Source of the DNA: Bacteroidota bacterium
Lineage (GTDB): Bacteria; Bacteroidota; Bacteroidia; Bacteroidales; FEN-979
DNA: 64,000 nucleotides
Direction of reading: 5' to 3'
Assembly (NCBI GenBank): GCA_043810345.1
Contig: JBDROF010000006.1
Span: 6,603 to 70,602 of the forward strand
Part shown: positions 2,230 to 44,374 of the stretch, piece after piece
Position numbering within the stretch: position 1 is the stretch's first letter
How the letters are laid out: each line of letters starts with the position of its first letter
Position numbers and translations under genes: made by a program
Notes under the pieces: model-generated
Told to the model about the DNA's origin: nothing
What the model saw: only the letters and a program-made list of their open reading frames with translations
Databases searched by the model: none

Positions 2230-3657
2230 ATGGTGAAGTATTTTCTGTTCATAATCATTTCGTTTATTTTCCTTGTGGCAACACCTTCCGCCTTCAGTCA
2301 ATATGAGGTCGACTTTAATTCAGGTAACACAAATTATTACGAAGCGCTTTGCTGGAATATTGAAGAAGCCTCGGTCAACACATCGCAACCCATTGAAGGA
2401 AGCAGGTCTATCCGGACCTCCAAACTGGACGATGACATCGGGATCATTATATCCCCCTGGGTGCTTCTTTCCGGTTCCGGTAATCTTACCTTCAAGCACC
2501 GGATCTACAATTTTGACGGCACGCGGAATCTAAAGGTCTACATTATCAGTGAGGCCAATCCAGGCGGGGATCTTCTCTTCGATTATAACTATTCGAACGG
2601 AGTCACCATCACCTCCGCCATCTCAGTTTCCCAGAGCGGGTTATATCAATTCAAGTGGCGTTTCTCCGGGTCCGGTGGAGACTCCAGGGGACAACTGGAT
2701 GTCATCTCTATCCCCGGCACCTATGCTTCGGATCCATCCAATAATTGTGCCCCCATCAACCCCAATCCGGATACCGACGGGGATGGGGTTCCCGATAGTG
2801 AGGATGACTATCCCACCGATCAGTACCGTGCTTACAACAACTTTTATCCGGCAACCGGGCAGTCGACCCTGGCGTATGAAGACCTCTGGCCATCCAGCGG
2901 GGATTACGACCTGAACGACGTAGTAATTGGATACAGTTTCAAAATTGTAACCAATGCCGACGATAATGTGGTAGATCTGATCGGCACCTTTGTGCTTCGT
3001 GCCTCCGGGGCCGGACTGCACAACGGATTCGGCTTTCAGCTTCCGGATGTAGCTCCCACCTCCGTCATTAGCACCACGGGGTATGATGTACTTCCTTCGG
3101 CCGGCTATACGTTTGGATCCAATGGCCTGGAAACCGGTCAAACCTATGCCACCGTGATCGTGTTTGACGACTTCTTCAGGTTCCTGGTCCCATCAGGCGG
3201 CGGTACCGGGGTCAACACCTCGGCCGGTCAAACTCCAGTTCCATATGATACAATAACCGTCACGATGGTCTTTATGAATAACGGCACCCCCGGAGCCGGT
3301 GGGGTAGTGAGCCTTACCACCCTGAACATCTCTGAGTTCAATCCCTTCATCATCGCCAGGATGGAACGGGGAAGAGAGGTTCATCTCCCCGATTGCGAAC
3401 CTACTGACAAAGCCGACACAACCTTATTCGGCATCGGGGACGACGACACCAACCCTGTCACCGGGAAATATTATAAAACCGACGCCAATTTACCGTGGGC
3501 ACTGAATATCTATGAAACGTTTGATTACCCGCTGGAGGAGGTCTCGATCATTGATGCCTACCTGAAATTCGGCGATTGGGTGGAAAGCAACGGAGTACAA
3601 TACCCCGACTGGTACCAGGATAATGCAGGATACAGGAATGCGGCTAATATTTATTAA
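2230..3657 (+). CDS. LruC domain-containing secreted protein
   Basis: Signal peptide, a thrombospondin-type-3-like DTDGDGVPDSEDDYPTD, then AYEDLWPSSGDYDLNDVVIGY. I recall the latter as the LruC/DUF4842 signature. Confidence 0.65.
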   Translation: MVKYFLFIIISFIFLVATPSAFSQYEVDFNSGNTNYYEALCWNIEEASVNTSQPIEGSRSIRTSKLDDDIGIIISPWVLLSGSGNLTFKHRIYNFDGTRNLKVYIISEANPGGDLLFDYNYSNGVTITSAISVSQSGLYQFKWRFSGSGGDSRGQLDVISIPGTYASDPSNNCAPINPNPDTDGDGVPDSEDDYPTDQYRAYNNFYPATGQSTLAYEDLWPSSGDYDLNDVVIGYSFKIVTNADDNVVDLIGTFVLRASGAGLHNGFGFQLPDVAPTSVISTTGYDVLPSAGYTFGSNGLETGQTYATVIVFDDFFRFLVPSGGGTGVNTSAGQTPVPYDTITVTMVFMNNGTPGAGGVVSLTTLNISEFNPFIIARMERGREVHLPDCEPTDKADTTLFGIGDDDTNPVTGKYYKTDANLPWALNIYETFDYPLEEVSIIDAYLKFGDWVESNGVQYPDWYQDNAGYRNAANIY

Positions 3658-3688
3658 CGTGGGCCGTTAGACGAGGGTAAAAATGTGT

Positions 3689-3696
3689 TATATTTG
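3689..3696 (+). promoter_or_regulatory. Bacteroidota-type -7 promoter box (Fic gene)
   Basis: TATATTTG, 53 nt before the ATG at 3749. Confidence 0.4.
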
Positions 3697-3748
3697 CCCT
3701 TGTAAATTAAACGAAGGCAACATTCACCTTTGTTGAAAAAAAGAGATT

Positions 3749-4831
3749 ATGGCATTCAATCCTGAGAATCCATATAACGAGCTCCCTTTGTTGCCCCCTT
3801 CAGCAGAGATAGAGAACGCCACTATTTTGAAAAAGACTATCGGGGCAAGCCGTGCATTGTCGGAACTTAAAGGTGTAATTACCAGCTTACCCAATCCAAC
3901 CTTGTTCATTGATACTATCAATTTACAGGAAGCACAGGCAAGTTCAGCAATTGAAAATATTATTACTACTCAGGATGAACTTTTTAAAGCATCTGTTGCC
4001 GGAAAAAAATCAGTCAGTCCGGCCACAAAGGAGGTGCTGCATTACAAGGATGCTCTTTGGTGGGGTGTGGCACGGATTAATAGAAGACCAATCCTAACAA
4101 CTAATCTCTTTGTGACTTTGATGCAAATTATCAAAGAGAATCAATCTGGAATCCGCAATGTGCCTGGTACACAGTTGAAAAATCCGGTTACTGGCCGGGT
4201 GGTTTACACCCCTCCCGAAGGGGAAAACGTAATCAGAGAGAAACTAAAAAATCTGGAGGACTTCATTCATGCGGTTGATGGCATAGATCCATTGGTAAAA
4301 ATGGCTATCCTGCATTATCAGTTTGAATCAATTCATCCGTTTTTTGATGGGAATGGCCGTACCGGCCGGATTATCCTGTTGCTTTACCTTAAACTGACCG
4401 GACTTTTAGATATTCCTGCATTATATCTGAGTGATTATATTAGTAGGCACAAAAATGACTATTACGAATTTCTCCGACGGGTTACTGAAGAAAATGACTG
4501 GCAGAGCTGGATTCTATATATGCTGGACATGATTGAACAAACCGCGATGAAGGGTCGTCAGCAAATAACCGAAATTGAACAATTGATGGGTCAAACCAGC
4601 AAAGAAATTCAGCAAAAGCTTCCAAAAGTCTATTCCAAAGACCTGATAGAAGTTCTTTTCAAATTACCTTATACCAAACGCTCACATCTGGAAATTGCCG
4701 GACTTGGAAACCTGAAAACCGTTGGCAGCTACCTTGCAGCATTGGAAAAGGCAGGTATTCTGAAAAGCGAACGGGTTGGGAAAGAAAAATTGTACCTGAA
4801 CGATAAATTATTAGCAGTGCTAAAAAAATAG
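3749..4831 (+). CDS. Fic family protein (AMPylase-type)
   Basis: Canonical Fic motif HPFFDGNGRTGR, an N-terminal Fic_N-like region and a C-terminal wHTH-like tail. Confidence 0.9.
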   Translation: MAFNPENPYNELPLLPPSAEIENATILKKTIGASRALSELKGVITSLPNPTLFIDTINLQEAQASSAIENIITTQDELFKASVAGKKSVSPATKEVLHYKDALWWGVARINRRPILTTNLFVTLMQIIKENQSGIRNVPGTQLKNPVTGRVVYTPPEGENVIREKLKNLEDFIHAVDGIDPLVKMAILHYQFESIHPFFDGNGRTGRIILLLYLKLTGLLDIPALYLSDYISRHKNDYYEFLRRVTEENDWQSWILYMLDMIEQTAMKGRQQITEIEQLMGQTSKEIQQKLPKVYSKDLIEVLFKLPYTKRSHLEIAGLGNLKTVGSYLAALEKAGILKSERVGKEKLYLNDKLLAVLKK

Positions 4832-9483: not shown

Positions 9484-11013
9484 CTATTGTTTCAACGTGA
9501 AGCAGAAGGTGCTCCCCTTCCCTAACTCAGAATCAACCCAGATAGTTCCTCCGTGGCGTTCCACGATCCGCTTGCAGATGGCCAGGCCGATGCCTGTTCC
9601 GGGGTACTGCTCTTTTTTATGCAATCGCTGAAAGATCGTGAATATCCGGTCAGCGTAGATCTCATTGATCCCGATGCCGTTATCCTGGATGGAAACAGTG
9701 ACCCTCTTCCCCTCCGTTTTTGCTGCGATTGATATCCTGGGCGGGGCATCTGCCGTAAATTTGATCGCGTTTTCAATCAGGTTCTGGAATAACCGGATCA
9801 ACTGGTTCTCATCTCCTTCTACAATCGTCAGGTGATCGTAGACAATGAGGGCTCCGGTTTCATTGATTGTCTGCTCCAGGTTGACAAGGGCCTTTCCCAG
9901 CACATCTGATAATCCTAGGTTTTGGAACGGTTTCCCGCGCGTTGTCACCCGGGAATAGTCGAGCAGATCATTGATCAGCTGTTGCATGCGGTTGGCTCCG
10001 TCAACAGTAAAGTTTATAAAATCGCGGGCATCGTCATCCAGTTGTTCTTTATACCGTCTTTCCAGTAGCTGGGTGTAACTCGAAACCATTCTCAGCGGCT
10101 CCTGCAGGTCGTGGGAAGCTACGTAGGCGAACTGTTCCAGCTCTTTGTTGGAGCGTTCCAGTTCCACTACTTTTTCCGCCAGGGAATTCTCCGCCACGGT
10201 TCGGCGTTTCTCTTCCATATCCCGTTCCACCCGGGCTGAAAGGATCGGAGCAATAGATGCAGCCAGCGCTTCCAGCAGTTGGACATCCTTTATGGTATAA
10301 TCTGTCTCCTTATTCGCAACCTGGAGTAGCCCTACTACCCTGGTTTGGTGGATAACCGGTACATTTACGTGCCGTGTGATCCCGATATGACCTGCCGGGG
10401 TGTTGGTGGATGGTTCATTCGTGAAATTCGATTGCTTCTCCCGGATGGCCGTGGGCCAGGTACTCTCTCCCCAGGTCTCTTTCGGAAATACAATGTCCTT
10501 GTCAGGAATATTGCACTCCTCCCAGATATGCCGGGTCATGGATGGAACGATTAAATCTCCACGCTGGTCAATGTATCCGAAAACCCCATACGGGCTCTCC
10601 ATGGCATCCAGGATGATCTTCAGCACATCATGGAACATCTCATCATCAGAGACGATAAGGAATTTTCTGACAATCTGGTTTCTGAAAACCAGCTCCTCGG
10701 CGAACTGTTTTCGCTCGGAAATATTTACCATATCGGCAATAAAAAACAGGGGATCGCCGGCAGCATCCCTGACCAACACGATATTCAGATTAATCCAGAG
10801 GGGGGGGGCGGTTTTATGAACGAACTTGCAATCAAAAAAGACAGAATGGCTTTCGTTTTTCATCAATTTTTCAGTCATTTTAAAGCTTAGATCCAGAAAC
10901 TCCGGATGGGTAATATCCATCCATGTTTTTGTCAGCAGCTCCGACTCATCGTACCCAAGTGTCTGACATATAGCCTGGTTCACTTTGATAAAGTCCCCCT
11001 CAATATTTGTCAT
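9484..11013 (-). CDS. PAS-GAF sensor histidine kinase (phytochrome-type HisKA); 3' part of a frameshifted gene
   Basis: H-box FAYVASHDLQEPLRMV, plus NLIENAIKF, DNGIGI and GTGIGLAICK. The PAS domain is cut at the N-terminus. Confidence 0.85.
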   Translation of the reverse strand: MTNIEGDFIKVNQAICQTLGYDESELLTKTWMDITHPEFLDLSFKMTEKLMKNESHSVFFDCKFVHKTAPPLWINLNIVLVRDAAGDPLFFIADMVNISERKQFAEELVFRNQIVRKFLIVSDDEMFHDVLKIILDAMESPYGVFGYIDQRGDLIVPSMTRHIWEECNIPDKDIVFPKETWGESTWPTAIREKQSNFTNEPSTNTPAGHIGITRHVNVPVIHQTRVVGLLQVANKETDYTIKDVQLLEALAASIAPILSARVERDMEEKRRTVAENSLAEKVVELERSNKELEQFAYVASHDLQEPLRMVSSYTQLLERRYKEQLDDDARDFINFTVDGANRMQQLINDLLDYSRVTTRGKPFQNLGLSDVLGKALVNLEQTINETGALIVYDHLTIVEGDENQLIRLFQNLIENAIKFTADAPPRISIAAKTEGKRVTVSIQDNGIGINEIYADRIFTIFQRLHKKEQYPGTGIGLAICKRIVERHGGTIWVDSELGKGSTFCFTLKQ

Positions 11014-13015: not shown

Positions 13016-13492
13016 ATTTCCATAAATTATATTCTTGTCTTATCTCTTCCAAAACGATAAGTCTACTCACCAATGGCTGTGACTGCCAAAATAAAAAATC
13101 ATTTCCTTGTTCAGAGATTTTACCTCTATGAACTACCGTTTTATCAATCATAGCTTCAGTCTGGGATTAATTTGTATGTCAACGTTACCACATCCATCAT
13201 GATGTTTTTCCTTCCGCTAAAGTAACATTTTTTTCAATACTTTTCAAGGTTCCACTTGCTAAAACCTTACAGACATCGTTCTTTTCCAGACATACCCCAA
13301 CTTATTCAACTCGATTTTTCTATTGATCGGGTGTACCAGTAAAAGGTAATACGTCAAGCTCAATTTTTTTTTACCGCAGAGGCAGCAGAGGAAACACAGA
13401 GGTCCTTCGTCCCACGTCATTTTGTCAGCCTGCCCTGCTTGGCACCCTCTTTGTCAATCCCACGGCAACGAATAACCAAAAACTGAACAACT

Positions 13493-15463
13493 ATGCAAAC
13501 AGGAAAGATCAACGTCCAAACGGAGAATATTTTCCCTATCATCAAGAAATTCCTCTACTCGGAACATGAGATCTTCCTCCGGGAGCTGATCTCCAATGCG
13601 GTGGATGCCACTCAGAAACTAAAGACCCTGGCCTCCCTAGGAAAATACAAGGGGAAGCTCGGTGATCTGACCATCCAGGTGAAGGTCAACAAGAAGAAGA
13701 AAACCCTTTCGGTCACCGACCGGGGAATTGGGATGACAGCCGACGAGCTGAATAAGTACATCAACCAGATCGCTTTTTCCAGCGCCGAAGAGTTTGTCAG
13801 CCAGTTCAAGACCAAGTCGGAAGCCGAGATGAATGCCATCATCGGTCATTTCGGACTGGGCTTTTATAGCTCTTTCATGGTCTCCGATAAGGTGGAGATC
13901 AATACCAGAACATACCGGAGCGGAGAGGGTACCGAAGCGGTCATGTGGGAGTGCGATGGGAGTCCGGAATACAAGATGGACACATCAAAGAAGAAAGAGA
14001 GGGGCACCGAGGTGGTCCTTCATATGGCCGACGACTCCCTGGAGTACCTGGAAGATCACCGGGTGCTTGAGATCCTGAAGAAATATTGCCGCTTCCTGCC
14101 GGTACCGATCCAGTTTGGAACGGAGAAGGTGTATGAACCTGTGAAGGACGAAGGACGAGGGACGAAGGACGAAGGACGAGGGACGAAGGACGAAGAGGTC
14201 ATTGCGAGCGAAGCGAAGCAAACCGATGGAAAAGAGCCCAAGACGAAAGAGGTAGAAAAACCCAGGATCATCAATGATACCAATCCGCTCTGGAAGCAGA
14301 AGCCGTCGGAACTTAAGGACGAAGATTATAAGAACTTTTACCGCAAACTCTATCCCTACAGCTTTGAGGAGCCGCTTTTCCATATCCACCTCAACGTGGA
14401 TTTTCCCTTCAACCTCACCGGGATCCTCTATTTTCCCAAGGTAAAGCGGACACTGGAGATCCAGAAAGACAAAATCCAGCTCTATTGCAACCAGGTGTTT
14501 GTGACCGACTCGGTGGAGGGAATTGTTCCCGACTTCCTGACGTTGTTACATGGCGTTCTCGACTCACCGGACATCCCGCTGAATGTATCCCGCAGCTTCC
14601 TGCAGAGTGATCCCAATGTGAAAAAGATCTCCAACCATATCATGAAGAAGGTGGCCGACAAGCTGGAAGAGCTATTCAAGGAGGACCGGAAGAACTTTGA
14701 AAAGAAATGGGACGACATCAAGGTCTTCATCGAATATGGCATCATCTCCGAAGCCAACTTCTACGACCGGGCAAAAAAGTTTTGCCTGCTGAAGAATACC
14801 GAAGGGAAATACTTCACCTTCGAAGAATATGAAAAGCACATTGCTCCTGCCCAGAAGGACAAACAGGGAACCCTGATCTACCTTTACTCCACCAATCCGG
14901 AAGAGCAGTACAGCTACATCCAGGCGGTCAAAGAACGCGGCTACGATGTGTTGTTGCTCGACGGCGTGATCGATTCCCATTTCATCAACACCCTGGAACA
15001 GAAGTTTGAAAAATCGCACTTTACCCGGGTGGATGCCGATACCATTGAGAAGCTGATCAAAAAGGAGGATGCCCAGCCATCCAAACTCAACGAGGATCAG
15101 CAAAAATCGCTGAAAGAGCTGATGGAGAAACAGATCGATTCAAAGAAATACACCATCACCTTTGAAAGCCTGAGTGAAAAGGAGGCCCCGTTCATGCTCA
15201 CCCAGCCGGAATTCATGCGCCGGATGAAAGATATGTCGGCCCTGGGTGGGGGGATGGGGTACATGGGCGAACTCCCCGATCACTTTAACCTCGCGGTCAA
15301 CTCCAACAACCCGGTCATCGGCAAACTGCTGCTGGAACCGGACGGAGGCAAACAGGCAGCCACCATCAAACAGCTCTTCGACCTCGCCCTCCTGGCCCAG
15401 GGTCTGCTGAAAGGAAAGGAGTTGGCGGAGTTTATCAAGCGCAGTACGGAGCTGGTGAAATGA
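13493..15463 (+). CDS. htpG: molecular chaperone HtpG (Hsp90), with repeat-derived linker insertion
   Basis: LRELISNAVDA, GIGMT, IGHFGLGFYS and the C-terminal dimerisation region identify it. Residues KDEGRGTKDEGRGTKDEEVIASEAKQ are encoded by a tandem heptamer array. Confidence 0.95.
   Translation: MQTGKINVQTENIFPIIKKFLYSEHEIFLRELISNAVDATQKLKTLASLGKYKGKLGDLTIQVKVNKKKKTLSVTDRGIGMTADELNKYINQIAFSSAEEFVSQFKTKSEAEMNAIIGHFGLGFYSSFMVSDKVEINTRTYRSGEGTEAVMWECDGSPEYKMDTSKKKERGTEVVLHMADDSLEYLEDHRVLEILKKYCRFLPVPIQFGTEKVYEPVKDEGRGTKDEGRGTKDEEVIASEAKQTDGKEPKTKEVEKPRIINDTNPLWKQKPSELKDEDYKNFYRKLYPYSFEEPLFHIHLNVDFPFNLTGILYFPKVKRTLEIQKDKIQLYCNQVFVTDSVEGIVPDFLTLLHGVLDSPDIPLNVSRSFLQSDPNVKKISNHIMKKVADKLEELFKEDRKNFEKKWDDIKVFIEYGIISEANFYDRAKKFCLLKNTEGKYFTFEEYEKHIAPAQKDKQGTLIYLYSTNPEEQYSYIQAVKERGYDVLLLDGVIDSHFINTLEQKFEKSHFTRVDADTIEKLIKKEDAQPSKLNEDQQKSLKELMEKQIDSKKYTITFESLSEKEAPFMLTQPEFMRRMKDMSALGGGMGYMGELPDHFNLAVNSNNPVIGKLLLEPDGGKQAATIKQLFDLALLAQGLLKGKELAEFIKRSTELVK
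14144..14224. repeat. (GAAGGAC/GAGGGAC)x8 heptamer array plus GTCATTGCGAGCGAAGCGAAGCAA module, inside htpG
   Basis: Read directly. Both are in frame and encode KDEGRGTKDEGRGTKDEEVIASEAKQ. Confidence 0.9.
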
Positions 15464-15547
15464 CGTAAGACGTAAGACGTGAGACGTGAGACGTGAGACG
15501 TGAGACGTGAGACGTGAGACGTGAGACGTGAGACGTGAGACGTGAGA
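15464..15547. repeat. (CGT[A/G]AGA)x12 heptamer array
   Basis: Read directly. It starts at the base after the htpG TGA and ends 2 nt before the stop of the four-helix-bundle gene. Confidence 0.95.
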
Positions 15548-15549
15548 TG

Positions 15550-15939
15550 TTAGACGGACCGGGTTCTACAGAAGAGTTCAGCCCGCTGTTCCATAGTTAT
15601 TAACTGAGCCATGATGTGATCATATTTCTCTCTTAATTGATTATACTCTTCGTCTTTGCAGTATTCGCATGAGAATATAAACTCCAGCCAGGTTTGTGTT
15701 TCAGCAGCTTCCGTTTGGCAATCGGTTACCTTATTAATAAACATCGCGATGTACCTTCGTTTGTGCCAGCTTTCGGCCAGGTTGCTGCAAACAGACCGAG
15801 ATGCTCGTCGTACCTGATCAGTTAAAGAGTATCGTTCCTCCTTTGGAAACTTCTTCGATAATTCAAAGATCTCCATGGCGGCCTGAAATGCAAGTTTATA
15901 TACATTCAGCTCCCGCACATTTTTTGCATGAGTTTTCAT
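15550..15939 (-). CDS. four-helix-bundle protein (23S rRNA intervening-sequence protein family)
   Basis: 129 aa with YKLAFQAAMEIFELSKKFPKEERYSLTDQVRRASRSVCSNLAE...ETQTWL, typical of the TIGR02436-type family as I recall it. Confidence 0.8.
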   Translation of the reverse strand: MKTHAKNVRELNVYKLAFQAAMEIFELSKKFPKEERYSLTDQVRRASRSVCSNLAESWHKRRYIAMFINKVTDCQTEAAETQTWLEFIFSCEYCKDEEYNQLREKYDHIMAQLITMEQRAELFCRTRSV

Positions 15940-16012
15940 TTTTCTGTTTTAAGTTGTTGCCTCCATTAATCCGAAAAAAGTAAAAAGGTTATACATCCTG
16001 AAAAAAAAAGTT

Positions 16013-16042
16013 CGTCTCACGTCTTACGTCTCACGTCTCACG
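16013..16042. repeat. (CGTCT[C/T]A)x4 heptamer array, inverted relative to 15464-15547
   Basis: Read directly. It is the reverse complement of the GTGAGAC family. Confidence 0.95.
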
Positions 16043-35779: not shown

Positions 35780-38465
35780 TCCTCGCTTTCGCGTCGGCTT
35801 TTTTCTTTCGTTCGTTCTCGACCACGTTTGACGGCGCGTTGCTGACAAACCGTTCGTTGCACAGCTTCTTCTCTACCGAGGCCAGAAATCCCCGGGTATA
35901 GGCCAGCTCCTCCTGCAGCTTGCGAAGCTCCTCTTCGCGATCCACCTGTGCGGAGAGAGGAATGTAGAATTCAGTGGTCCGCACCACAAACGAAACCGTG
36001 CCGGCCTGCTTCTCATCCACATAAGCCAGTTCGTCGATCCCGCAGAGCTTCATCACCACCTCATCAAAGGTGACATCCACCGGTTCGGAGTGGTTCTTTT
36101 TGATCATCATCCGGATCTTCTCCTTCTGGGCGATGTTTTTCTCTTTCCTGACCGTCCGGATAGCGGTGACAACCTCCTTTGCAAATTCGAATGATTTAAG
36201 TAATCCGGGATCCGGTAAATACCCCTCCCCCAGCCCCTCCCCAACAAGGGAGGGAGATAAGCCCCCTTCAGGGGATTTGGGGGTACAATCCGGGATCGGC
36301 GCTATCATTATCGAGGCTCCCTGTTCCCTTTCAGCCAGCCGCTGCCAGATCTCTTCGGTAATAAAAGGGAGGAAAGGATGAAGCACCCGCAGGAGTTCAT
36401 CAAAAAAACCGACCGTTGCCTGGAAGGTCATGGAATCGATGGGCTGCCGGAAACCAGGTTTGATCATCTCCAGGTACCACGAACAGAAATCATCCCAGAA
36501 GAGCTTATAGATTGCCATCAGGACTTCTGACAACCGGTAGGCCACAAACAACTCTTCGATCTCCTTCAACGATTGGGCAAACTGACTCTCAAACCAGGCT
36601 GCGGAAACCTGACATGCCTGTGTTTGCCCCTGAGATGCATCCACCTCCCACCCCTTTACCAACCGGAATGCGTTCCATAACTTATTGCAGAAGTTCCTTC
36701 CCTGTTCAATCAATCCTTCATCAAAGAGCAGATCGTTGCCTGCCGGGGAACATAAAAGCATCCCCATCCTGACTGCATCGGCTCCGTGCTGATCAATCAG
36801 CCGAAGGGGTTCAGGCGAATTTCCCATCGACTTGGACATCTTTCGCCCCGTTTTATCCCGCACAATACCCGTAAAATAGACGTTGTGAAAAGGGATCTCG
36901 TTCCGGTATTCCAGTCCGGCCATGATCATCCGGGCCACCCAGAAAAAGATGATCTCGGGAGCGGTAACCAGGTCATGGGTCGGGTAGTAGTAATTGATAT
37001 CCGGGTTATCCGGCTTCCTGATGCCATCAAACACCGAGATCGGCCACAACCAGCTGGAGAACCAGGTGTCCATGACATCAGGATCCTGGGTAAGATCGTG
37101 AATCGTGAGACGTGAGACGTGAGACGTGATTGCGGACTGCGGACTGTGGACTGCAGACTTGGCTTTTTCAAAGGCCTCTTCTTTGCTCTTCGCCACGATC
37201 ACCGTCCCATCGGGGAGGTACCAGGCCGGGATCCGCTGTCCCCACCAGAGCTGGCGGGAGATGCACCAATCCTGGACGTGTTCCATCCAGTGACGGTACA
37301 TGTTCTTGTATTTGGAAGGGTGGAAACGAACCGTATCGTTCTCAACCACCTCCAATGCCGGGCCTGCCAGCTCTTTCATCCGGAGGAACCACTGCACGGA
37401 GATCCTCGGTTCGATCACTTCATCGGTGCGTTCGGAGTAGCCAATCTTATTTGCGTAATCTTCAATTTTTACAATGTGCCCGGCGGCATCAAGGTCGGTC
37501 ACGATCTTTTTCCGCACGGCAAACCGCTCCTCACCAATGTAAAGTTGGGCAGCTTCACTCATGGTGCCATCGGGGTTGAAGGTATCCACCACCTCCAGGT
37601 TGTGTTTGAGTCCCAGGTTGTAATCGTTGATATCATGGGCCGGCGTGACTTTCAGTGCGCCAGTTCCAAACGCTATATCTACATAGTCATCAAAGATGAC
37701 CGGCACCGACCGGTTGATCAGCGGAATGAGAATACGTTTGCCTTTCAGATGGGCATACTTGTCATCATCCGGGTGGACGCAAATGGCTGTGTCGCCCAGG
37801 ATCGTTTCGGGCCGGGTGGTAGCAATCGTCACATGCTCATCAACCGTATCCTCTATCTTGTACCGGAGGTAATATAACTTCGATTGCACCTCTTTGTAGA
37901 TTACCTCCTCATCGGAAACAACTGTCAGCGCCAAGGGGTCCCAGTTCACCATACGGGCTCCACGATAGATTAATCCCTTGTTATACAGATCGATAAATAC
38001 ATCGATAACCGAATCGTACCTGGCTTCATCCATGGTAAAACAGGTCCGATCCCAGTCGCACGAAGCTCCCAGCTTCTTCAACTGTTCCAGGATGATCCCC
38101 CCATGTTTCTCTTTCCACGTCCAGGCATGCTCCAAAAACTGCTCCCGGTTAAGTTCCGATTTATCGATCCCCTCCTCTTTGAGTTTCGCCACTACCTTGG
38201 CCTCTGTGGCAATGGATGCATGATCGGTGCCGGGAACCCAGCAGGCATTTTTGCCGCTCATCCGGGCTTTCCTGACCAGGATATCCTGGATCGTATTGTT
38301 GAGCATGTGCCCCATGTGGAGGACACCGGTTACATTCGGAGGGGGAATTACAATGCAGTAAGGTTTGCGGTTGTCGGGTTCAGAATGAAAATATCCCTGT
38401 TTCATCCAGTAGTCGTACCATTTGCTCTCAACTAATGCAGGGTTATATCTTGAAGGAATCTCCAT
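35727..38465 (-). CDS. valS: valine--tRNA ligase, with two repeat-derived in-frame insertions
   Basis: [13 protein letters not shown] (HIGH), KMSKSMGN (KMSKS), the editing domain and a C-terminal coiled coil. Insertions are at about 37097-37159 and 36211-36296. Confidence 0.95.
36211..36296. repeat. two GC-tract hairpin modules inserted in frame in valS
   Basis: Encodes ...[27 protein letters not shown]... Matches the intergenic copies at 8967-8987 and 17388-17415. Confidence 0.8.
37097..37159. repeat. 9 heptamer units (5x CGTGA[G/A/T][A/T] plus 4x G[C/T][G/A]GACT) in frame in valS
   Basis: Read directly. 63 bp = 21 codons, encoding [20 protein letters not shown]. Confidence 0.9.
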
Positions 38466-43648: not shown

Positions 43649-44374
43649 ATGCCAGCAAAGATCAGATTACAGAGAAGGGGTAAAAAGGGACAACCTTTTT
43701 ATCACATTATGATTGCGGATGGTCGTGCACCACGTGACGGAAGATTCATTGAAAAAATTGGCTATTACAATCCTCTGACCAAACCTGCAGAGATTGAGAT
43801 CAATTTTGAGAGCGCCCTTTACTGGTTGCAGAAGGGAGCACAACCCACGGATACGGTCAGAGCCATCCTCTCCTACAAAGGAGTTATGTACAAAAACCAC
43901 CTGCTGAAAGGAGTTCAGAAGGGAGCGTTGACACCCGAACAGGTTGAAGAGAAGTTCCAGGTATGGCTCTCGGAAAAGGAGGCCAGGATCAACTCGAAAA
44001 AGAATGAACAGGAGCTGAGTCTCAAAGAGGCGCACAAAGCTGCCCTCGACCATGAGAAAAAGGTAAACGAAACCAAAGCCCAGGCTCTGGCAAAGAAATA
44101 TGCCAAGGCAAAGAAAGCAGCTGAAGGAGAAGCCGAAGAAGAGGGTCCTGCTGCGAAAGAGGGAGCCACGGAGGTGACCGGGTCTGTAGCGGAACCTGCG
44201 GCCGGAGAGGTGACTGAGGAGGGTGCAAAAGCTGAAGAACCAGCTCCAGAAGAGGAACCAACCCAAGAAGAACCGACCGAAGAAGAACCAACCGGGGAAG
44301 AACCAACCGTGGAAGAACCAACCGTAGAAGAACCAACCGTGGAAGAACCAAAGAAAGAGGAACCGTTGCCGTAA
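43649..44374 (+). CDS. rpsP: 30S ribosomal protein S16 with acidic repeat tail
   Basis: [42 protein letters not shown]. The C-terminal half is Lys/Ala/Glu-rich and ends in EEPTx pentapeptide repeats. Confidence 0.9.
44252..44356 (+). repeat. 7 x 15-bp coding repeat (GAAGAACCAACCnnn; EEPTx) in the rpsP tail
   Basis: Read directly. In frame. Confidence 0.9.

Follow-up and report, generated by a model that had tools for sequence, protein, structure and literature searches.

The gene htpG in the stretch of DNA analysed here, 64,000 nucleotides of contig JBDROF010000006.1 from the assembly GCA_043810345.1 of an uncultured Bacteroidales bacterium, phylum Bacteroidota (in the following "the window"), encodes an Hsp90-family chaperone with a strongly expanded hinge between its N-terminal and middle domains. 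The 22 extra codons probably stem from dispersed repeats of two kinds, both belonging to this genome, that settled at a tolerant site: a tandem array of heptanucleotides and one arm of a hairpin module that recurs in many phyla. In our view this insert is likely to be selfish DNA that is tolerated within a gene of the essential type, rather than a new feature of the chaperone. The htpG case, the identity of the 24-nt arm and its link to a small nuclease are new here. The relevant features are:

13493 to 15463, plus strand: htpG, Hsp90-family chaperone of 656 amino acids (Pfam HSP90, E = 8.5e-62, plus HATPase_c).
14120 to 14263, plus strand: inter-domain hinge, residues 210-257, joining the N-terminal domain to the middle one (PDB alignment, AlphaFold2).
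14143 to 14195, plus strand: heptamer array GAAGGAC/GAGGGAC, 7.6 units (Tandem Repeats Finder, pattern search).
14198 to 14221, plus strand: solo arm of the GTCATTGCGAG..GAAGCAA hairpin module, GTCATTGCGAGCGAAGCGAAGCAA, encoding VIASEAKQ at residues 236-243 (22-mer search, family scan).
13402 to 13415, minus strand: two-unit heptamer remnant (GTGGGAC GAAGGAC) in the spacer upstream of htpG, GTCCTTCGTCCCAC (pattern search).

The protein is a complete HtpG: the N-domain of the GHKL ATPase type and the middle and C-terminal domains of Hsp90 are all present. In an alignment with HtpG of E. coli (PDB entry 2iop), the N-domain aligns over residues 12-209 and the middle domain from residue 258 onwards, which leaves a hinge of 48 residues as compared to 13 in the E. 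coli protein. An AlphaFold2 model, based on 37 homologues, shows residues 219-250 as coil with a pLDDT below 50, flanked by strands at 206-216 and 251-259. Both repeat pieces lie in frame within this hinge and are translated as KDEGRGT KDEGRGT KDEE VIASEAKQ (residues 218-243); the reading frame is unbroken across the 66 extra bases.

The array reads GAAGGAC GAAGGAC GAGGGAC GAAGGAC GAAGGAC GAGGGAC GAAGGAC GAAG, followed by GAG and then by GTCATTGCGAGCGAAGCGAAGCAA. Tandem Repeats Finder describes it in two ways, with a period of 7 (7.6 copies, 91% matches) and with a period of 21 (2.5 copies, 100% matches), i.e., as a 21-nt superunit repeated two and a half times. A preliminary description of the window had placed about eight units between 14144 and 14199. 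The heptamers are real, yet 14144 is merely the first base of codon K218, while the units begin one base earlier, and the array proper ends at 14195. Its share of the translation, KDEGRGT KDEGRGT KDEE, covers residues 218-235. None of the window shuffles yielded seven heptamer-pair matches. The complement of the heptamer, which had also been reported upstream of htpG, is indeed present there, with two mismatches to two units; with 0.48 chance matches expected per window, this remnant is not significant by itself.

Since 7 equals 1 modulo 3, a pure heptamer array is translated into one and the same repeat of seven residues whichever frame is read; in the present case this repeat, KDEGRGT, is free of stops and hydrophilic. 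The frame downstream is set by the length of the array alone, and inside a gene the array would therefore grow or shrink by slippage in steps of 21 nt. The perfect 21-nt periodicity within the htpG array fits this constraint.

The array is but one member of a large family. In the 2.96-Mb genome Tandem Repeats Finder lists 734 rows of period 7, of which 580 have at least three copies, and the GAAGGAC/GAGGGAC family alone accounts for at least 41 arrays. They are mostly found directly 3' of gene ends and continue into GTGAGAC or GTAAGAC units. Runs of three such units were found in each of the six genomes sampled from the genus (8-124 windows per genome); of 34 further genomes of the bacterial family just two have them, and a reversed control is almost devoid of matches. 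In relatives, arrays that read KDEGRGT also lie in frame; their hosts include an E2 acyltransferase, where a linker is concerned, as well as a protein of about 1115 residues and an open frame of 1763 residues. The E2 case is seen in two related species (loci L238, G007:C83, and L242, G004:C9), where KDEGRGT sits in the flexible linker after the lipoyl domain.

The second piece, the 24-mer GTCATTGCGAGCGAAGCGAAGCAA, is found at 14198-14221 exactly as first described, in frame and reading VIASEAKQ. No shuffle of the window matched its 22-mer core. The preliminary description had taken it for a repeat spread widely over Bacteroidota and other phyla, and rightly so: in a collection with one genome per species, the exact 22-mer CATTGCGAGCGAAGCGAAGCAA occurs in at least 120 genome stretches of many phyla. 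Its hosts comprise Bradyrhizobium, Sphingomonadales, Rickettsiales, Legionellales, Deltaproteobacteria and Planctomycetota, and likewise Chloroflexota, Calothrix, Omnitrophota, Ignavibacteria, Hymenobacter and Prevotellaceae. Among the matches listed, 109 of 134 copies are followed by a partner arm no more than 170 nt away; the median element measures 83 nt and is palindromic. The full palindromic element folds with a z-score of -9.1 against shuffles. The htpG copy, with or without its flanks, has no significant fold (z = -0.1 to -0.5); it lacks the partner arm. No Rfam family covers the element in the window segment 12000-19000 or in five full-palindrome loci, and a full-text literature search for the letters of the motif returned unrelated primers only. 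At one locus (L130), six or more copies of the 22-mer follow each other head to tail, separated by no more than 13-16 nt.

Within the bacterial family, the module consists of the box GTCATTGCGAG, a variable insert, 6 to about 30 nt long, and the box GAAGCAA; in htpG the insert is of minimal size, which gives GCGAAGC. The family consensus is (C/T)GTCATTGCGAG..GAAGCAATCC(A)G. Among the cross-phylum matches listed, C or T precedes GTCATT in 126 of 137 copies, and the ten commonest downstream 5-mers, which account for 114 of the 137, have TC after GCAA. The htpG copy has kept GTCATT, but with G in front instead of C or T; it reads GCAAACC instead of GCAATCC and has lost one stem pair, a C still following. 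A target-site duplication of the htpG insert was sought by eye, and the only sequence common to both sides, AACC, is not convincing.

This genome contains 13 strict copies of the module and a reversed control none, which bears out the expectation that the motif has further genomic copies. The 11-mer GTCATTGCGAG occurs 11 times, always within module copies, as compared to zero times in the control. Each of the six genomes sampled from the genus has modules (4-24 copies), and so do 8 of 35 others, with up to 49 copies, the reversed control again having none; their distribution within the bacterial family is patchy. The variable insert is a hairpin that is maintained by compensatory change, as judged from covariation: in the 12-nt class 13 variants have G:C as pair 3:9 and another 13 have A:T, and the pairs 2:10 and 1:11 switch jointly between A:G/G:A and C:G/G:C. 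Long inserts have a mean perfect stem of 5.4 versus 3.1 in shuffled ones. The modules also keep close company with short-period arrays: 5 of 13 lie within 30 nt of one, as compared to 5.5% of random positions.

The hinge of HtpG is not the only protein segment that accommodates such DNA. Five of the 13 strict modules lie in frame within verified genes, i.e., htpG, mutS2 (two copies), nadD and a transglutaminase-like gene; a sixth, looser copy is found in antisense orientation within a DUF3352 gene. The two tandem modules of mutS2 are read in two different frames, as VIARSEATRQ and SLRGAKRRGN. They stand next to heptamers (G000 contig C21, 8565-8710), and the gene has a second heptamer block at 9724-9794. 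In the transglutaminase-like gene (contig C18, about 123505-123600), a heptamer-like tract and the module lie between 10-nt direct repeats, CACCAATCAC, which may be the footprint of a target duplication or of microhomology. The nadD site, for which loci L244-L257 were compared, is instructive:

Five genomes of the genus and every other genus sampled: no insert (YIYPRP..), ancestral length.
This genome, contig C76, 14565-14606: long module variant of 42 nt, in frame.
Genome G001: the same long variant, its inner hairpin altered by a compensatory change.
Genome G006: short variant, identical to the htpG 24-mer, placed 7 nt downstream after an extra CCACGAG.
Genomes G004 and G007: decayed copies.

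In about 35 related htpG lineages, drawn from whole genomes and metagenome contigs, the segment KYC..RIIN has 43 residues with the consensus EKVEGEKDKDGNDK. Deviations from this length are confined to same-genus sequences, where it ranges from 36 to 65 residues. With 65 residues the present protein is at the upper end, and the claim that its linker is expanded relative to orthologues thus holds. The lengths are:

This genome: 65 residues.
L010: 65 residues.
L158: 59 residues.
L009: 56 residues.
L008: 55 residues.
L029/L157, the closest relative: 36 residues.
L011 and L021: canonical.

The inserts of the relatives consist of phased heptamers, ACGAAGG-type units being followed by AAAAGCG-type ones. 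In L010 the heptamers are followed by a different element, the palindrome GGGGCGGGTTCCAAACCCGCCCC. In a protein collection, one hinge (P0013) contains three tandem VGAGSKPAP modules, the peptide VGAGSKPAPDDAG occurring three times, and reaches a length of 77; another (P0019) contains a GTRHASS module, GTRHASSDG. None of these variants from the collection has VIASEAKQ. The hinge of a further related bacterium (P0026) carries the repeat-derived peptide SACFDSAQQP. In a tree of HtpG computed without the hinge, the genus clade has a support of 100/100; the present genome is sister to L029/L157, which retain only GAAGGACGAGGGA, and the clade of L011/L021 has the canonical hinge. The simplest history would be a single old invasion by heptamers, followed by lineage-specific growth, shrinkage and capture of modules. 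Judged from these sequences, the expansion of the linker is genus-wide and older than the species, the 24-mer alone being specific to the lineage and presumably the latest addition. The hinge is a general landing pad for repeats. The genomes of the genus, it should be added, are all fragmented metagenome-assembled genomes (MAGs), and those of close kin are not independent of each other.

A candidate partner of the modules can be named. The sole small GIY-YIG gene of the genome (contig C117, 3560-3868; 103 amino acids; PF01541, E = 3.3e-16) is flanked by two modules on either side (3382-3974), the GTCAT end of which faces the gene. This locus is a candidate master copy of the module family. Against the UPF0213 protein BH0048, its product gives a weak match (E = 1.1e-5). 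All six close homologues, from four genomes of the bacterial family, show the same layout of modules, and a close homologue is present in 4 of 14 module-bearing genomes versus 0 of 27 module-free ones. In a sample of 200 genomes of the order, the 8 closest homologues come from eight different families, and ATTGCGAG boxes flank 7 of them on either side; remoter GIY-YIG homologues in this sample have none. Among the cross-phylum loci, two have a small GIY-YIG gene directly between boxes, one of them in Planctomycetota. In one genome of the same order (G242) the small GIY-YIG gene is present 15 times, a number suggestive of a recent burst.

Other partners were considered and abandoned. A Y1 transposase of the RAYT/IS200 type (PF01797) has no match in this genome (completeness 97.3%); throughout the genus it is missing or gives weak matches only, though the genomes have modules, and its presence does not track that of the modules. 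A gene for a four-helix-bundle protein, which will be met again below, is present in all 41 genomes, and its copy number shows no clean correlation with the presence of modules or heptamers.

The module family probably works like the Ssn system of Neisseria, and by analogy it is probably a member of it. There, the NTS repeat, CGTCATTCCCGCGMAVGCGGGAATCYRG, and a wider range of Ssn-related motifs (SRM) flank ssnA, a single-domain GIY-YIG gene of 94 residues (Chenal et al., Nat Commun 2025, PMC11893778). SsnA binds its motif in single-stranded DNA (ssDNA) only, the cut being made a few bases to the 5' side; in N. meningitidis 2% of the NTS lie inside genes, and the mobility of Ssn motifs has been raised as a hypothesis only (PMC11893778). 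The likeness is considerable. Both are oriented hairpin repeats of 20-50 nt with CGTCATT at the 5' flank and AATCC(A)G at the 3' flank, both are dispersed in tens to hundreds of copies over many phyla, and both are found on either side of a single-domain GIY-YIG gene of about 100 residues. They differ in the core, which here is ATTGC-GAG-[variable mini-hairpin]-GAA-GCAAT and not ATTCCCGCG..GCGGGAAT, and in the share of copies within genes, which amounts to 5 of 13 in frame in verified genes as compared to the mentioned 2% of the NTS. Moreover, the copies in the present genome are mostly solo arms that often abut heptamer arrays.

Other known systems resemble parts of the picture. Mazel in 1990 and Elhai in 2008 are said to have described heptanucleotide tandem repeats of the STRR type in heterocystous cyanobacteria, with small dispersed repeats (SDR) embedded in them. 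The heptamers described here have the hallmarks of this type, i.e., tandem 7-nt units in dispersed families with many arrays per genome. Common to both are the many families of arrays in spacers, the hairpin modules in or beside them and the occurrence of different modules at one site in related strains; the differences are the phylum, Bacteroidota, the sequences of the units and the location in frame in housekeeping genes. Rickettsia palindromic elements (RPE) were reportedly found in frame within protein-coding genes by Ogata in 2000. The in-frame survival of selfish palindromic repeats in conserved proteins is the shared trait, and RPE are known to occupy permissive surface sites of such proteins (PMC10969869). 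An RPE, however, has 100-150 bp and a conserved peptide, whereas the htpG insert combines a 24-nt half element with a heptamer array in a disordered linker. We accordingly dismissed the idea that it is a complete element of the RPE type: it does lie in frame in a conserved gene, but consists of a 24-nt solo arm and heptamers only. Finally, REP/REPIN elements, which go with RAYT transposases (Bertels and Rainey 2011, PMC3116915), are likewise short imperfect palindromes, often arranged as inverted doublets that form a long hairpin, and likewise flank a single-copy gene of the nuclease type. Here, this gene is a GIY-YIG nuclease, and the Y1 transposase is missing from the genome.

How the insert might have come about can be sketched as follows. 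The hinge would have been invaded before the species arose, with expansion, contraction and the arrival of further modules in different lineages thereafter. The array in the hinge would change by slippage in the 21-nt steps mentioned, and the repeats would persist where they are, as the hinge is the one part of HtpG that should tolerate any hydrophilic, unstructured sequence. The module family would be a variant of the Ssn-related motifs and the bracketed small GIY-YIG gene would encode the cognate nuclease. By analogy with SsnA, the latter would bind the folded motif in ssDNA and cut just 5' of it. For the chaperone itself the insert is most likely neutral. Also the 24-mer probably has no role for HtpG, because it is a degenerate solo arm without a fold in a disordered and freely varying hinge. 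Going further, one might regard the GTCATTGCGAG modules as an active, mobile and so far unrecognised branch of the Ssn system that is copied into ssDNA at or beside heptamer arrays, exchanged for other variants at a given site and precisely lost. We mention this as a tentative idea that is rather less likely to be right than wrong. If true, it would be the first comparative evidence for the mobility of Ssn-type motifs, and the mobile modules would keep supplying the genus with insertions in frame, by which the linkers and loops of its housekeeping proteins are remodelled.

Some findings do not favour the view that the hinge harbours dispersed repeats of an Ssn-like family. The published SRM pattern, HGTCWYN(0-2)YYVSBRHN(0-5)WNVSBRGN(0-2)RNCYNB, matches neither the canonical arms nor the htpG copy, and in this genome it has 12 matches versus 15 in a reversed control. 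Ten of the 14 module-bearing genomes in the family sample lack a close homologue of the nuclease gene. All ten are fragmented MAGs, however, and such absences are weak evidence for this very reason. Then, the native hinge codons of relatives with a canonical hinge, GAAGGCGAAAAAGATAAAGACGGC, resemble the heptamer GAAGGAC, so that seeding in situ is possible. The array could accordingly have grown by slippage of purine-rich hinge codons, and the 24-mer could have evolved from an adjacent AAGCGAA-type tract, with no import of DNA and a shared mutational bias accounting for the likeness to the dispersed families. In L009 and L158 the place of the module is indeed taken by heptamers of the AAAAGCG type, and the module itself is in part of low complexity (GCGAA GCGAA GCAA). 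We nevertheless hold such an origin to be unlikely: the hinge has the same mixture of GAAGGAC and GAGGGAC as at least 41 other arrays here and hundreds in the genus; the 11-mer GTCATTGCGAG is not of low complexity and, with 11 occurrences versus none in the control, is tied to modules; and the very same 24-mer recurs in nadD of a second species of the genus, the exact 22-mer being present in many phyla.

Selection is another conceivable cause. In eukaryotic Hsp90 the charged linker modulates how the domains contact each other, the present insert is hydrophilic and charged, and an expanded hinge has been kept in five lineages of the genus; a longer charged linker might thus have been selected to tune the dynamics of the chaperone, with the repeats as raw material. 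Close relatives, however, vary freely in length and sequence (36-65 residues, 77 in P0013), the closest one has a hinge shorter than the canonical one, and the same repeats turn up in unrelated proteins and in spacers, all of which makes an adaptive hinge rather improbable. That the repeat tract was misassembled into htpG might be suspected in a MAG of 124 contigs, the more so as a look-up of the exact protein revealed no other assembly with this htpG allele. Yet the frame is intact over the 66 extra bases, five related species and two metagenome contigs, assembled independently, show heptamer expansions at the same codon positions, and the 90% cluster of the protein contains a second member sequence. 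An artefact is therefore hardly to be believed. We thus prefer the reading of the insert as dispersed repeats at a tolerant site.

What do these findings mean beyond htpG? Spurious peptides such as VIASEAKQ, SLRGAKRR, LLRFARND and CFASLAMT recur in databases and in real proteins; their origin is explained herewith. By analogy, the Ssn system of nucleases and hairpin motifs appears to extend to a widespread variant that the published pattern misses and that ranges over Bacteroidota, Alphaproteobacteria, Planctomycetota, Chloroflexota, Cyanobacteria and others. Such motifs and heptamer arrays can persist in frame in conserved genes, far more often than reported for Neisseria. The HtpG hinge and the nadD loop may be regarded as natural experiments on the insertion, exchange and disappearance of elements.

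The window contains further repeats:

15462 to 15556, plus strand: heptamer array GACGTGA, 13.6 copies, starting from the htpG stop codon, left arm of a neighbouring cassette (Tandem Repeats Finder).
15550 to 15939, minus strand: four-helix-bundle gene of the family of 23S rRNA intervening-sequence proteins (PF05635, E = 4.8e-31).
16013 to 16042, plus strand: heptamer array CGTCTCA, 4.3 copies, right arm, its unit being the reverse complement of that at 15462-15556 (Tandem Repeats Finder).
37104 to 37157, minus strand: in-frame heptamer tracts of valS (repeat scan, translation).
36222 to 36278, minus strand: in-frame GC-rich hairpin module of valS, between the anticodon-binding domain and the C-terminal arm (translation).

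Directly after htpG, the cassette at 15462-16042 thus has a four-helix-bundle gene between inverted heptamer arms; the genome contains 17 such genes. The valS gene, identified by Pfam, had been listed together with htpG as a housekeeping gene invaded in frame by repeats, and it has indeed been entered by both heptamers and a GC-rich hairpin. The heptamer site aligns with a variable loop of the valyl-tRNA synthetase (ValRS) of T. thermophilus, and the hairpin segment comprises 39 residues as compared to 15 in the latter enzyme. A tandem repeat with periods of 15 and 45 nt, GAAGAAGAACCAACC, is present in about seven copies at 44237-44365.

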